This document shows positions 32,047-35,546 of a DNA stretch of 39,831 bases, in pieces. The first letter of the stretch is position 1. The number at the start of each line of letters is the position of its first letter. The DNA lies in NCBI GenBank assembly GCA_017444785.1, contig JAFSVX010000020.1:1-39831 (forward strand), in the 5' to 3' direction. The DNA comes from Clostridia bacterium. GTDB taxonomy: Bacteria > Bacillota > Clostridia > Christensenellales > UBA1242. The notes under the pieces were generated by a model that worked only from the letters and a program-made list of their open reading frames with translations, was not told where the DNA came from and ran no database searches. The position numbers and the translations under genes are program-made.

Positions 32047-32556
32047 TTAAATTTTTGCCAACTTTTCCAAAATGCTGTCTGCAGAATTTACTCTGCTTCC
32101 ATAAATTGCTGTGCCTTCCTGAATTTCAGAATTTGGAAGAAGCTTTCGCAAATCCACTTCGGAAGATCCAAAACCACTTCCTTCGTGCGATACTATTGGG
32201 ACAATAGTTTTTCCTGAAAAGTCAAAACTCTCCAAAAAAGTAAACACGTGGACAGGAAATGTTCCCCAGTAGATTGGGTAAATCAAGAATATCTTGTCAT
32301 ATTCGTCAACACTTTTAAGGTTTTCTTTAAGTGCAGGTCTTGCGTTTTTACGTAAATCCTCTTTTGCTTCATCAATGCAAATCAAATAGCTGTCTGAATA
32401 AGGTTTAAGTGGTTCAATCTTAAACACATCTGCTTCTGGCAATAATGCTTTAAGTTTTTCAGCCAAAACCTCATTGTTACCTTTTTCAAGATATTTGATT
32501 GATCCGCCAGAATAATTTTCCCCTGCCCTTGAAAAATATACAATAAGTATTTTCAT
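32047..32556 (-). CDS. Flavodoxin
   Basis: VYFSRAGENY, YPIYWGT, HEGSGFG motifs; GGAGG RBS before ATG 32556. Confidence 0.92.
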   Translation of the reverse strand: MKILIVYFSRAGENYSGGSIKYLEKGNNEVLAEKLKALLPEADVFKIEPLKPYSDSYLICIDEAKEDLRKNARPALKENLKSVDEYDKIFLIYPIYWGTFPVHVFTFLESFDFSGKTIVPIVSHEGSGFGSSEVDLRKLLPNSEIQEGTAIYGSRVNSADSILEKLAKI

Positions 32557-32627
32557 TACTCCTCCTTTAACTACTTTAAATATATCATAAATGTTAATAA
32601 AATCATAATAAATTTTCAATATTTTCA

Positions 32628-32654
32628 AAAAAAGCAGGGTAGACACCCTGCTTT
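32628..32654 (-). terminator. asnA terminator
   Basis: AAAAGCAGGGT..ACCCTGCTTTT hairpin with T tract. Confidence 0.8.
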
Positions 32655-32684: not shown

Positions 32685-33680
32685 TTATAATAAGTCTATT
32701 TTAAATTTTTCACATTGCTTTATGGTTTCTTTATCCCAATAGCTTGCCTGAACTTCGCCAATGTGAGCTCGCCCAAGAAGAAACATACAAAGCCTGCTTT
32801 GTCCAATTCCACCACCAATTGTAAGTGGCAACTGATCACTTAATATTGACTTATGATAGGAAAATTCAAGTCTTTCTTGTTTGCCAGATTTTTCAATTTG
32901 TTTTAACAAAGATGTTTTATCCACCCTTATTCCCATGCTTGAAATTTCAAGTGCCATATCAAGTACCTCATGATAGAAAAGTAAATCCCCGTCAAGACTC
33001 CAATCATCATAGTCAGGCGCTCTTAAGTCATGAGGTTTTCCATCGCTTAAATCATCTCCAATTCCAATAATAAACACAGTTTTATATTGTTTTGTAATAA
33101 GGTACTCACGCTCTTTATCTGTTTTGTCTGGATACATATCAAGAAGATCTTGACTTGTAATAAAGTAAACATCAGGGCAAATTTCAACGCTTTCAAAACC
33201 TTCTTTCTTTAAATACTCGCTTGTTTCAAAAATTGCCTTAACTATCTTTTTTACTGTTTTTTTAAGATAGTCTATTGTTCTGTCCTTTCTTGTTATCACT
33301 TTTTCCCAATCCCATTGATCGACATAAATTGAATGCGTTTCATCCATTTTATCATCTCTTCTTATTGCAGTCATATCCGTATAAAGTCCTTTATGTACAT
33401 CAAAGCCATACTTTTTCAGTGCAAATCTTTTCCATTTTGCAAGTGATTGCACAACTTCCAGTTCTTTGCCATCTTTTTTGATGTCAAACGACACTTTTCT
33501 TTCAACTCCGCTCAAATCATCTTGAAGTCCACTCTCTTTAGTAACAACAAGTGGCGCCGAAACCCTTGTAAGCTCCATTTGTTTTGCAAGTTTTCTTTCA
33601 AACTTATCTTTAATTATTTTAATATATTTTTGTTTTTCTAATATGCTAAGTTTAACATATTTTTCTTTTATAAATTTCAT
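32685..33680 (-). CDS. asnA: Aspartate-ammonia ligase
   Basis: VQSLAKWKR, YVDQWDWE, RAPDYDDW, GGGIGQSR motifs. Confidence 0.97.
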   Translation of the reverse strand: MKFIKEKYVKLSILEKQKYIKIIKDKFERKLAKQMELTRVSAPLVVTKESGLQDDLSGVERKVSFDIKKDGKELEVVQSLAKWKRFALKKYGFDVHKGLYTDMTAIRRDDKMDETHSIYVDQWDWEKVITRKDRTIDYLKKTVKKIVKAIFETSEYLKKEGFESVEICPDVYFITSQDLLDMYPDKTDKEREYLITKQYKTVFIIGIGDDLSDGKPHDLRAPDYDDWSLDGDLLFYHEVLDMALEISSMGIRVDKTSLLKQIEKSGKQERLEFSYHKSILSDQLPLTIGGGIGQSRLCMFLLGRAHIGEVQASYWDKETIKQCEKFKIDLL

Positions 33681-33752
33681 AATTTTTATCTCCTTAAATT
33701 TTTATTTGTTTGTAAATTTTAAAATTTGAAACTTATTTAAGGAGCATAAAAT

Positions 33753-33827
33753 TTACATAAAATTTCTCCTTAAACAACTATTATTGTTATTATCATTGTC
33801 GCCCGCTACGGCATTTGCTTTACTCAT
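33753..33827 (-). CDS. Asn-rich leader peptide 2, MSKANAVAGDNDNNNNSCLRRNFM
   Basis: AAGGAG-N7-ATG; 7 Asn in 24 aa; its 3' end pairs with a downstream anti-SD. Confidence 0.8.
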   Translation of the reverse strand: MSKANAVAGDNDNNNNSCLRRNFM

Positions 33828-33866
33828 AATCTTTCTCCTTTTTTGTTACTTTGTAAGTTCTGTGCA

Positions 33867-33899
33867 ATAAAAGTGCACCCTTCTTTTGAGGGTGCACTT
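33867..33899 (-). terminator. Attenuator terminator 2
   Basis: AAGTGCACCCT-CAAAAGA-AGGGTGCACTTTTAT. Confidence 0.75.
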
Positions 33900-33933
33900 A
33901 TTATCCTGTTATCAAGTAAGCAACAATGCAAAT

Positions 33934-33966
33934 AAAAAACACCCTCTTGGATTTCAAGAGAGTGTT
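33934..33966 (-). terminator. Attenuator terminator 1
   Basis: AACACTCTCTTG-AAATC-CAAGAGGGTGTT-TTTT. Confidence 0.85.
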
Positions 33967-33989
33967 GAATTTATTTGCTTAACTTATGC

Positions 33990-34073
33990 TTAGATCTTTT
34001 CAACAACAAAAATGAAACCCATGTTAAATGCGTTTAAATTATTATTGTTGTTGTTATTTATAAGCCTAAACAT
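33990..34073 (-). CDS. Asn-rich leader peptide 1, MFRLINNNNNNNLNAFNMGFIFVVEKI
   Basis: AAGGAG-N7-ATG; 7 consecutive Asn codons; directly after the promoter and before terminator 1. Confidence 0.85.
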   Translation of the reverse strand: MFRLINNNNNNNLNAFNMGFIFVVEKI

Positions 34074-34103
34074 ACATTTTCTCCTTTTCAAACTTACAAA
34101 GGT

Positions 34104-34132
34104 ATTATATCACAACATTTTTGCAATGTCAA
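34104..34132 (-). promoter_or_regulatory. sigmaA promoter of the asnA leader
   Basis: Perfect TTGACA-N17-TATAAT with TG extension. Confidence 0.88.
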
Positions 34133-34433: not shown

Positions 34434-35546
34434 CTAGTCACTTACATCAACATCAAGAGTTATGGTTAAATTATAATCGCTGTATTTCCCTTTGACTTCG
34501 TCATAAATTTGTTTATACAAATTTTCTCGGCCTTTTACACTGAAATCTATAATAATATCAAAGCTCATAGTTTTTTCTTTGATATCAACATAAAAGCCAT
34601 GCATTTGCAATATGCCCTCATGTGAAAAAACTATTTTTTGAACATCTTTTCTGATTTCTAAAGTATCTTTATCTTTTGTGTTTATAGAGTAAACTCCAAT
34701 TGTATGAAGAATGACTCCAAATTTTTCAGCAATATTTTTTGTTATACTTCTTGAAATTTGGTCGATTTCAGAAACCGACAATGTGTCTTCCAATTCAATA
34801 TGCACCGAGCCCAAATATTTGTCAGGTCCATAATTGTTTAAAATTAAATCAAAAGCACCTTTTACGTGTTCTTCTTTAAGTATTTCTTTCTTAATATCGC
34901 GAGATAAATTACTTTCTATTCTTGTACCAATCATATTATCAATAGCTTCTTTAAGCAGTTCAATACCAGATTTTATTATTATAACTGAAAGAAGTGCACC
35001 TACATAGGCTTCTATGCTTATATTAAATAAAATATAAACAACGGCGGATACAAGAACCGAAATTGATAAAAGTGCATCATTAAAAGCGTCTTGTCCACTT
35101 GCAATTAAGGCGTCTGACTTAACAGCCTTTCCCTTTTTCTTAACAAAAATACTCAGGACAAATTTGACTAAAATACCAACTGCCAAAATTACAAGAGTTA
35201 TAGTGCTGTAATCAGCAACCTCAGGATGAATTATTTTTTTAATTGATTCAATAAATGCTGTCAACCCTGCATACAAAACAAGGACAGAGATAAGCAGTGA
35301 TGTCAAATACTCAATTCTCCCATATCCATATGGGTGCTTTTTATTAGGGGCTTTTCCTGCAAGTTTTGTCCCAACAATCGTAATGGTGCTTGATAATGCA
35401 TCAGTTATATTATTGACAGCATCAGAAATTATAGCTATTGAATGTGAAAAAACACCTACAATAGCTTTGAATATTGACAGCACTACATTTGATGCAATAC
35501 TTATTATACTTGTTTTTACTACGGTTTTTTCTCGTTTGTTTTTCAT
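34434..35546 (-). CDS. Cation diffusion facilitator transporter
   Basis: SDAVNNITD and HPYGYGRIEY motifs, about 6 TM helices, duplicated C-terminal domain. Confidence 0.93.
   Translation of the reverse strand: MKNKREKTVVKTSIISIASNVVLSIFKAIVGVFSHSIAIISDAVNNITDALSSTITIVGTKLAGKAPNKKHPYGYGRIEYLTSLLISVLVLYAGLTAFIESIKKIIHPEVADYSTITLVILAVGILVKFVLSIFVKKKGKAVKSDALIASGQDAFNDALLSISVLVSAVVYILFNISIEAYVGALLSVIIIKSGIELLKEAIDNMIGTRIESNLSRDIKKEILKEEHVKGAFDLILNNYGPDKYLGSVHIELEDTLSVSEIDQISRSITKNIAEKFGVILHTIGVYSINTKDKDTLEIRKDVQKIVFSHEGILQMHGFYVDIKEKTMSFDIIIDFSVKGRENLYKQIYDEVKGKYSDYNLTITLDVDVSD

Follow-up and report, generated by a model that had tools for sequence, protein, structure and literature searches.

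Two upstream reading frames rich in asparagine codons, two terminators, and a candidate translational switch precede asnA in uncultured Clostridia

We analyzed a 39,831-nucleotide (nt) stretch of DNA from a Clostridia bacterium (GenBank assembly GCA_017444785.1, contig JAFSVX010000020.1, positions 1 to 39,831), here called the window, and focused on the leader of asnA, the gene for aspartate-ammonia ligase. The source genome comprises 844 kb in 65 contigs with 36% GC and is 86% complete. In transcript order, the leader carries a promoter, a first upstream open reading frame (uORF1) with its own Shine-Dalgarno sequence (SD) and seven consecutive asparagine (Asn) codons, two terminators (T1 and T2), a second upstream frame (uORF2), and an anti-SD switch over the start of asnA. 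A preliminary description made from the sequence had listed these elements, and we found all of them on the minus strand, where it had placed them. The main features are the following.

34104..34132, minus strand: sigma-70-type promoter, TTGACA-17-(TG)TATAAT, matching the consensus at 12/12 positions
33990..34086, minus strand: uORF1 with its SD (AAGGAG at 34086..34081, 7-nt spacer, ATG at 34073, stop codon at 33992..33990)
34038..34058, minus strand: run of seven consecutive Asn codons (region 1), which pairs with UUGUUGUUG in region 2
33999..34022, minus strand: region 2, AUGGGUUUCAUUUUUGUUGUUGAA, inside uORF1; 5' strand of a two-part antiterminator
33930..33969, minus strand: terminator T1, with UUCAACA, the stem AACACUCUCUUG/CAAGAGGGUGUU, the loop AAAUC, and a U tract (hairpin at 33966..33938)
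33865..33899, minus strand: terminator T2, AAGUGCACCCU...AGGGUGCACUU with a U-rich tail (hairpin at approximately 33899..33871)
33753..33840, minus strand: uORF2 with its SD (AAGGAG at 33840..33835, 7-nt spacer, ATG at 33827; reading frame 33827..33753)
32685..33680, minus strand: asnA, 331 amino acids (Pfam AsnA, PF03590, E value of 1.9e-97)

The peptide of uORF1, MFRLINNNNNNNLNAFNMGFIFVVEKI, is specified by 27 codons, with two further Asn codons near the run of seven; that of uORF2 is MSKANAVAGDNDNNNNSCLRRNFM. Upstream of the uORF1 start, at a distance of 4 nt and out of frame with it, there is a second AUG (34075-34077, minus strand), which would encode M-Y-V before a stop codon. This AUG is 3 nt from the SD, closer than the uORF1 start, and probably goes unused. 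On balance, we favor a reading in which a single transcript carries two ribosome-read stages in series before asnA, namely, an Asn attenuator with a terminator relay and then a translational pseudoknot switch.

The preliminary description had suggested looking for paired poly-Asn frames upstream of asnA in relatives, and such pairs are present. With a search pattern built from the conserved RNA that follows the Asn codons, we retrieved 72 stretches from 185,579 species genomes (loci are numbered with the prefix L). An Asn run stood just upstream in 29 of the 72, identifying a poly-Asn uORF1. A recognizable AsnA N terminus followed in 26 of these 29 loci, and the remaining three end at contig ends. 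A homologue of uORF2, reading M-K-K-x-N-A-V-A-G-E/D and then an Asp/Asn-rich stretch, was present in 27 of the 29; L076 has none, and in L061 the frame is broken. Two family relatives with asnA carry a homologous poly-Asn uORF. The same plan in more divergent sequence was found in L095 (by an AsnA protein query), in L231 (by a query with the uORF2 core), and in the metagenomic loci L296, L300, and L302. Altogether, the arrangement is conserved in approximately 35 genomes or contigs, with compensatory changes, and the named records are uncultured gut Clostridia, some of them labeled Christensenellales.

The other surveys delimit this distribution. Among the best 80 loci of the AsnA protein survey, mostly with AsnA at 53 to 60% identity, the leader was present only in L095 and L096. 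The scan with the uORF2 core listed at least 119 matches and was swamped by GC-rich chance matches; among the matches listed, two were AT rich and genuine (L182, on the same contig as L095, and L231). The metagenome scan gave 10 matches, 8 genuine and 2 due to chance (L298 and L299), the genuine ones including one on the contig of L020 and three near-copies of L024.

Could an AT-rich intergenic region have produced all this by chance? The genome contains 14 runs of four Asn codons, which makes the NNNN of uORF2 insignificant by itself, and SD-like AAGGAG words are common. Five or more AAY codons in a row, in any frame, occur only once in the 844-kb genome, and that run is the one in uORF1. The whole leader folds far more stably than its shuffled versions (z = -7.6), and three terminator-like sites were found in it where 0.2 were expected. 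Given the uniqueness of the Asn run, the fold score, and the conservation with compensatory changes, the arrangement is more than chance, and we assign a negligible probability to a chance origin.

For the first stage, we counted pairings on an alignment of 30 sequences. T1 was paired in 96.4% of cells, and 8 of its 12 pairs had changed on both sides. The helix between regions 1 and 2, in which the Asn codons AAC AAC AAY pair with UUGUUGUUG and AAACNCAU pairs with AUGGGUUU, was paired in 97.5% of cells with little variation. In L095, a GUA interrupts the Asn run and region 2 has the matching U-to-C change; in L231, an AAU pairs with a U-to-A variant of region 2. Region 2 (GGGUUUCA...UGUUGAA) also complements the loop and the top of the stem of T1, together with UUCAACA at the foot of the T1 5' arm, and this antiterminator was paired in 93.3% of cells. 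The T1 loop varies among GAAAUCC, GAAACUC, and GAAACCC, always keeping its complementarity to GGGUUUC. When the nascent RNA was folded from region 2 to the T1 loop, the two-part antiterminator was the minimum free energy (MFE) structure in 29 of the 30 loci, including the window. The stop codon of uORF1 lies just after region 2 or, in some lineages, just before it, so that a finishing ribosome would mask the antiterminator strand.

Judged in silico, uORF1 has every sequence-level attribute of a leader-peptide attenuator, that is, an SD with an open reading frame, cognate codons, a terminator, and mutually exclusive pairings, and on these grounds it fits a classical Asn-specific leader-peptide transcription attenuator. 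From these observed elements and pairings and their conservation, we infer how it may work. With Asn plentiful, the ribosome would read uORF1 through region 2 to the stop codon, T1 and then T2 would form, and transcription would end. With no ribosome on uORF1, the Asn codons would pair with UUGUUGUUG, and termination would likewise follow. With Asn scarce, the ribosome would stall on the seven Asn codons, and region 2 would capture the loop and 5' arm of T1.

The two terminators appear to be connected. T2 is present in 24 of the 30 loci (20 found by an automatic detector and four, L026, L041, L050, and L055, added by eye), and six loci lack it; in the window, its energy is -16.8 kcal/mol. The 3' arm of T1 complements the 5' arm of T2 in all 24 loci with T2. 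The duplex averages -11.85 kcal/mol, versus -5.3 kcal/mol for shuffled arms, and reaches -15.3 kcal/mol in the window; when cognate and noncognate arms were compared, none of 10,000 permutations matched the cognate mean. Under starvation, the freed 3' arm of T1 would thus be available to pair with the 5' arm of T2, and both terminators would be passed. In L044 and L053, the T1 hairpin has no U tract, which means that only T2 can terminate there, an arrangement that makes sense only if the state of T1 is passed on to T2. We read this as suggesting that T1 and T2 may form one relay driven by uORF1, in which a single stall could relieve both. A common origin of the two hairpins could also have left the arms complementary as a by-product. 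The preliminary description was right that there are two terminators, but the complementarity in 24 of 24 loci speaks against reading them as two independent stops.

A different division of the locus would make uORF1, T1, and T2 an independent small gene or small RNA, with uORF2 and asnA transcribed from a promoter of their own. The 44 to 65 nt between T2 and the uORF2 start in the window and its nearest relatives would suit such a division, as would a TTTACT-like hexamer seen there by eye in several relatives. We consider it very unlikely nonetheless. Of 30 loci, 27 have a promoter match of at least 10/12 in an equivalent position upstream of uORF1, compared with 1 of 30 for the interval between T1 and uORF2, and that single match is built from the T1 loop and U tract. 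No promoter-like site was found between T2 and uORF2 in the window. In L045, L231, L028, L036, and L060, the SD of uORF2 lies within approximately 25 nt of T1, so close that these short forms leave no room for a promoter. Moreover, the antiterminator pairings would serve no purpose in two separate units. An internal promoter before uORF2, which the preliminary description had itself raised as a threat to a serial arrangement, is therefore not what these promoter matches point to, and we regard it as unlikely.

In other Firmicutes, asnA and asnS are controlled by T-box leaders that respond to the charging of tRNA(Asn), i.e., the same gene and the same signal as proposed here. The preliminary description saw no T-box in the asnA leader, and Rfam covariance models bear this out: no family reached its threshold there (the best was Phe_leader with 21.5 bits against a cutoff of 55), and no T-box appeared even at an E value of up to 10. 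At the asnA loci of 12 relatives, there was no T-box either, and again no Rfam family scored above its threshold. Among 20 more distant Clostridia asnA loci, one has a T-box (L169:819-1058, Intestinibacter bartlettii, 117 bits). Elsewhere in the source genome, there are T-box-like elements at C52:18178-18366 and C41:3927-4143 (L090 and L089, respectively), with 65 and 91 bits against a cutoff of 93 bits; the one on C52 precedes a threonyl-tRNA synthetase-like open reading frame. The presence of these elements indicates that the lineage uses both T-box and ribosome-read strategies. We found no other convincing codon-run leader in the source genome.

The gene content of the genome is informative about the signal. 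The gene asnS, for asparaginyl-tRNA synthetase, is present (595 bits), and an asnB-type synthetase was not found in the 86% complete assembly. With asnS present and asnB not found, the charging of Asn-tRNA should track the Asn that is made by AsnA or taken up. Directly upstream of asnS lies a paralogue of the class II synthetases, probably aspS, which reaches 229 bits with the asnS model; the two genes are at C60:12727-15500 (L173 and L174).

The second stage involves five segments around the end of uORF2 and the start of asnA.

33766..33775, minus strand: M, an SD mimic, GUUUAAGGAG, within the 3' end of uORF2; forms helix H1 with the anti-SD
33748..33756, minus strand: X, GUAAAUUUU, containing the uORF2 stop codon; can form helix H2 with X' or join the OFF helix by pairing with the spacer and AUG of asnA
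33735..33744, minus strand: anti-SD, CUCCUUAAAU
33712..33720, minus strand: X', AAAAUUUAC, the pairing partner of X
33670..33699, minus strand: asnA SD AUUUAAGGAG (33699..33690), 9-nt spacer, AUG at 33680, and first codons; 3' strand of the OFF helix

These segments occur in this order in 19 of the 30 sequences, as well as in L058, which is cut by a contig end. Among loci with the switch, X holds or follows the uORF2 stop codon. All three helices, H1 (M with anti-SD), H2 (X with X'), and H3 (anti-SD with SD), are present in 18 of the 19 sequences with an anti-SD; of 10,000 permutations, 0, 0, and 40, respectively, reached the cognate mean. H1 has an energy of -14.1 kcal/mol in the window. Covariation in this stage was assessed on a MAFFT alignment, in which 4 of the 10 H1 pairs change on both sides and 78.8% of cells are paired. 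The latter value is lowered by six rows that are shifted by one column, and the per-sequence duplex analysis is the better measure for H1. H2 is paired in 94.8% of cells, with changes on both sides in 7 of its 9 pairs and variants such as GUAAAU/AUUUAC, GGUGAAU/AUUCACC, and GUAGAUUGU/ACAAUCUAC and, in L095, AGGGCA/UGCCCU. X' has no visible role other than pairing with X. H3 is paired in 94.9% of core cells.

The MFE structure of the free RNA is one long helix in which X and the anti-SD pair with the strand running from the asnA SD through its spacer and AUG into the first codons. It comprises 26 pairs in the window (-20.8 kcal/mol) and is present in all 20 sequences tested. In silico, the SD and AUG of asnA are thus sequestered in a helix whose strand has an alternative partner, as in translational attenuation of the erm/cat type. 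In these folding models, we see the long helix as a predicted OFF state and the pseudoknot of H1 and H2 as a predicted ON state, which would occupy both halves of the 5' strand of the OFF helix and free the SD and AUG.

Several loci depart from this layout. In L061 (around 358-463 and approximately 100 nt upstream), the frame and the start of uORF2 are lost and the core reads GCC TTA GCA GGC TAA; the RNA of M, X, anti-SD, X', and SD is intact. The subclade of L024, L041, L048, and L080 keeps uORF1, T1, T2, and uORF2 and has no anti-SD, and in L024 another hairpin, GAUAAUUUUC...GAAAAAUUAUC, surrounds the uORF2 stop codon. A start-stop pair, AUG-UAA, follows M (7 nt after the SD mimic, at 33753-33775, minus strand) in frame with the end of uORF2. 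We considered it as a possible element, but apart from the window, only L035 and L083 share it, and it is probably incidental; in L025 and L086, a third mini-frame starts at that site.

The reading frame of uORF2 itself contains three features of interest.

33798..33815, minus strand: uORF2 core, AAU GCC GUA GCG GGC GAC (N-A-V-A-G-D)
33813..33800, minus strand: hairpin UGCC-GUAGCG-GGCG overlapping the core (-5.2 kcal/mol)
33780..33800, minus strand: Asp/Asn tract, GAC AAU GAU AAU AAC AAU AAU (D N D N N N N)

The core AAY GCC GUA GCG GGC GAN (N-A-V-A-G-E/D) is invariant and is the sole part of uORF2 found in all 28 uORF2s. Variation at the third positions of the codons for Asn, Val, the second Ala, and Glu/Asp is of the kind that a coding sequence should show. 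Each of the codons GCC and GGC, which build the stem of the hairpin (Y)GCC-GUAGCG-GGC(R), is retained in 27 of 28 uORF2s, the genome having a GC content of 36%. Where the stem does change, compensation preserves the pairing: L060 has GCU..AGC, L041 closes the stem with a U-A pair, and L084 gains a C-G pair. The distance from the start codon to the core Asn is four codons in 24 of the 28. From these patterns, the core appears to be constrained as a peptide and as RNA alike, and it is the most unusual part of the locus. A dnaX-like -1 frameshift, with its SD, AUG AAA AAG, and hairpin, was considered as well, but the window and several other loci lack the slippery word, and we rejected it.

Asn is frequent after the core. 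Over the eight positions that follow NAVAG, it accounts for 73 of 204 residues (36%), compared with 6.1% in a proxy for the proteome, although the support is overstated by the relatedness of the sequences; 22 of the 28 uORF2s have at least two Asn residues there. The preliminary description had taken uORF2 for a second Asn sensor with its own SD and the stretch N-D-N-N-N-N. Both are present, but what is invariant is the NAVAG-E/D core with its GC hairpin and not the Asn tract.

One may therefore ask whether the core is the actual second sensor, with the tract and the switch being later additions. The N-A-V-A-G-E/D peptide and the GC hairpin could be an arrest or pause element for free asparagine, aspartate, or another factor, or the hairpin could bind a protein. 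The presence of the core in all 28 uORF2s, in L095 and L231, and in lineages without the switch agrees with such a role, as do the double constraint and the regular distance from the start codon. The hairpin is short, however, with only 4 bp; we know of no arrest motif that the core matches, a Pfam search of both uORF peptides gave no match, and no conserved long-range partner for the GC hairpin was found across the related loci. The first codon of the core is itself an Asn codon, which fits a simpler stalling model, and we think it improbable that the core is the real sensor. We give marginally more credit, still well on the doubtful side, to a combination in which the core peptide and the hairpin in the same codons together bring about a programmed pause or arrest of the ribosome in response to asparagine status (free Asn, free Asp, or Asn-tRNA) and in this way set the pseudoknot switch at the asnA start. 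If this were true, the leader would be a composite two-level amino acid sensor whose second stage is without a described counterpart.

How translation of uORF2 would set the switch depends on where ribosomes stop. M, X, and the anti-SD are the earliest segments to be transcribed, and the ON pseudoknot should therefore be the first to fold during transcription, leaving the asnA SD and AUG free. In 17 of 18 loci, uORF2 has its stop codon within M or immediately behind it, and in 7 of 18, the anti-SD begins exactly 11 nt after the stop codon. With this position and spacing, a terminating ribosome would bury M and X and leave the anti-SD free, favoring the OFF helix. All Asn codons of uORF2 lie upstream of M, the invariant codon 5 by 31 to 43 nt and the tract codons by 1 to 23 nt. 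If a ribosome stalled at codon 5 or within the tract of Asp and Asn codons, no ribosome would get past it, and the ON state would persist. At codon 5, the stalled ribosome would also sit over the start of uORF2 itself, so that nothing passes, and the response would have a homeostatic sign. We infer that Asn-stalled ribosomes would keep the ON state. A disome spacing between codon 5 and the tract was also considered and was inconsistent by eye across loci.

The opposite direction is the strongest competitor. Here, the first stage would work as described, and uORF2 would be a constitutive uORF whose ribosome, at the stop codon, melts the OFF helix and activates asnA, the Asn codons being secondary or merely slowing the ribosome. 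The folding results lend themselves to this view. The OFF helix is the MFE structure of the free RNA, and nested-only equilibrium folding of this RNA leaves the asnA SD largely paired (probability of being unpaired of 0.12 in the window and of at most 0.05 in 7 of 18 loci); with a ribosome placed at the uORF2 stop, the SD becomes more open (0.49 to 0.66) in the window, L026, L035, and L083. The outcome of such constrained folding depends on 2 to 3 nt of the assumed ribosome footprint, and the nested-only models leave out pseudoknot energies. The uORF2 stop codon lies inside X or M, uORF2s with few Asn codons exist (L044, L045, L060, and L231), and the mgtQ/mgtB study (PMC8092293) provides a precedent. 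Set against this, stalling on Asn codons would then lower the translation of asnA, which is the wrong sign for a biosynthetic gene. Much would also be left unexplained: X', whose helix with X covaries in 7 of its 9 pairs and is in competition with the OFF helix; the SD mimicry by M; the sixfold enrichment of Asn; and the recurring 11-nt spacing, which puts the anti-SD just outside a terminating ribosome. We therefore judge this direction to be unlikely, albeit with a chance that deserves attention.

Besides the equilibrium folding and the open SD at the uORF2 stop, a number of observations weigh against two ribosome-read stages in series. The antiterminator averages -9.9 kcal/mol, compared with -17.2 kcal/mol for the finished T1 hairpin, so antitermination must be kinetic, as it is in trp attenuation. 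Because the search pattern itself prescribed the 5' strand of the antiterminator, only one-sided change is visible there. H3 shows almost no covariation, which is explained by the SD being unable to vary; the exception is L084, where an AGGGAG SD is matched by the anti-SD CUCCCU. Three of the 28 uORF2s have no Asn in the eight residues after NAVAG. Where Asn codons lie 1 to 8 nt from M, a stalled ribosome would cover part of M. The anti-SD switch is absent in 10 of the 30 sequences, and stage 2 cannot work this way everywhere. The closest AsnA that we found (L093, 79% identity) has neither the poly-Asn leader nor uORF2. Finally, most sequences were gathered with patterns from conserved parts, and kinship among them makes the shuffle counts overstate the support. 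The anatomy and the serial arrangement put forward in the preliminary description agree with the comparison of loci, with the uORF1 attenuator in 29 other genomes, uORF2 in 27 of these, and the anti-SD switch with its pseudoknot in 19 of 30 sequences; the AND gate that it proposed is a possible consequence of such an arrangement.

In L093 (680-1212), the sequence upstream of asnA is unrelated, richer in GC, and apparently structured; that genome seems to carry a replacement for the leader. In the window, the asnA unit is flanked by genes for a cation-efflux (CDF) transporter upstream (34434-35546) and a flavodoxin-like protein downstream (32047-32646), both on the minus strand and with no evident link to asparagine.

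If two stages do act in series, a Clostridia lineage with very small genomes would use ribosome-read leaders where other Firmicutes use T-boxes. With a transcriptional and a translational sensor of one amino acid in series, the response would be sharper, and leaky expression of an ATP-consuming enzyme would be limited. The locus also offers three compact, testable designs: the terminator relay; the switch made of SD mimic, anti-SD, and pseudoknot that is coupled to a uORF; and the peptide-plus-hairpin element. To our knowledge, no leader-peptide attenuator for asparagine biosynthesis has been described. We found none for Asn or asnA in the full-text collection searched, although most subscription journals lie outside its coverage and an older description is possible.

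The classical enterobacterial attenuators (trp, his, pheA, thr, and leu) consist of a short open reading frame with a run of codons for the end product, alternative 1:2, 2:3, and 3:4 pairings, an intrinsic terminator, and a stop codon that masks region 2. The uORF1 stage shares with them the translated frame, the codon run, the alternative pairings, the terminator, and the placement of the stop. It differs from them in the amino acid and gene (Asn and asnA), in its Clostridia host, and in an antiterminator that grips the T1 loop as well as the 5' arm. Further differences are the second terminator, wired to the first by arm complementarity, and the second uORF with its translational switch.

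A ribosome-mediated attenuator in a Firmicute is known from the ilv-leu leader Rli60 of Listeria (PMC5864092); unlike the asnA leader, it is described there as a single uORF rich in branched-chain amino acid codons with a single terminator and no translational stage. The Salmonella mgtCBR leader has two short frames, mgtM and mgtP, each with its own alternative stem-loops and one of them rich in codons for one amino acid; they answer ATP and Pro-tRNA, and both act on transcription (PMC3641672). The asnA leader likewise combines two uORFs, each with its own alternative structures, their translation being suggested by the SDs, the spacing, and codon-periodic conservation. Unlike those of mgtCBR, its two uORFs share an abundance of Asn codons, and the apparent target of the second is the initiation of translation; no terminator was found after uORF2 in the window.

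As in leaders of the erm type, for example that of ermC, the position of a ribosome on the leader frame would select pairings that hide or free a downstream SD. Leaders of this type with two peptides (ermB; PMC8274638) and with transcriptional attenuation at a terminator (ermK; PMC5418344) exist. The erm signal is a drug-bound ribosome with a specific nascent peptide, whereas the presumed signal of the asnA leader is tRNA charging; the asnA switch uses an SD mimic, an anti-SD, and the pseudoknot partners X and X' in place of four nested segments. The mefA/msrD operon comes close in having two leader peptides in series that sense the same signal, erythromycin, before one gene (bioRxiv 10.1101/2021.11.29.470318). 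As described there, both of its leaders are transcription attenuators, a full gene lies between them, and the inducer is an antibiotic. In mgtQ, a uORF with acidic residues lies beside a stem-loop that hides the ribosome-binding site of mgtB, and its translation activates mgtB (PMC8092293); uORF2 would have the opposite sign, the difference that forms the chief alternative to our reading. The preliminary description knew of no described example, a statement that goes too far in view of the two-uORF leaders already known from mgtCBR, mefA/msrD, and ermB. What is new here is the amino acid and gene (Asn and asnA), a putative relay between terminators, a predicted pseudoknot switch linked to a second uORF, and a core in which peptide and hairpin coincide.

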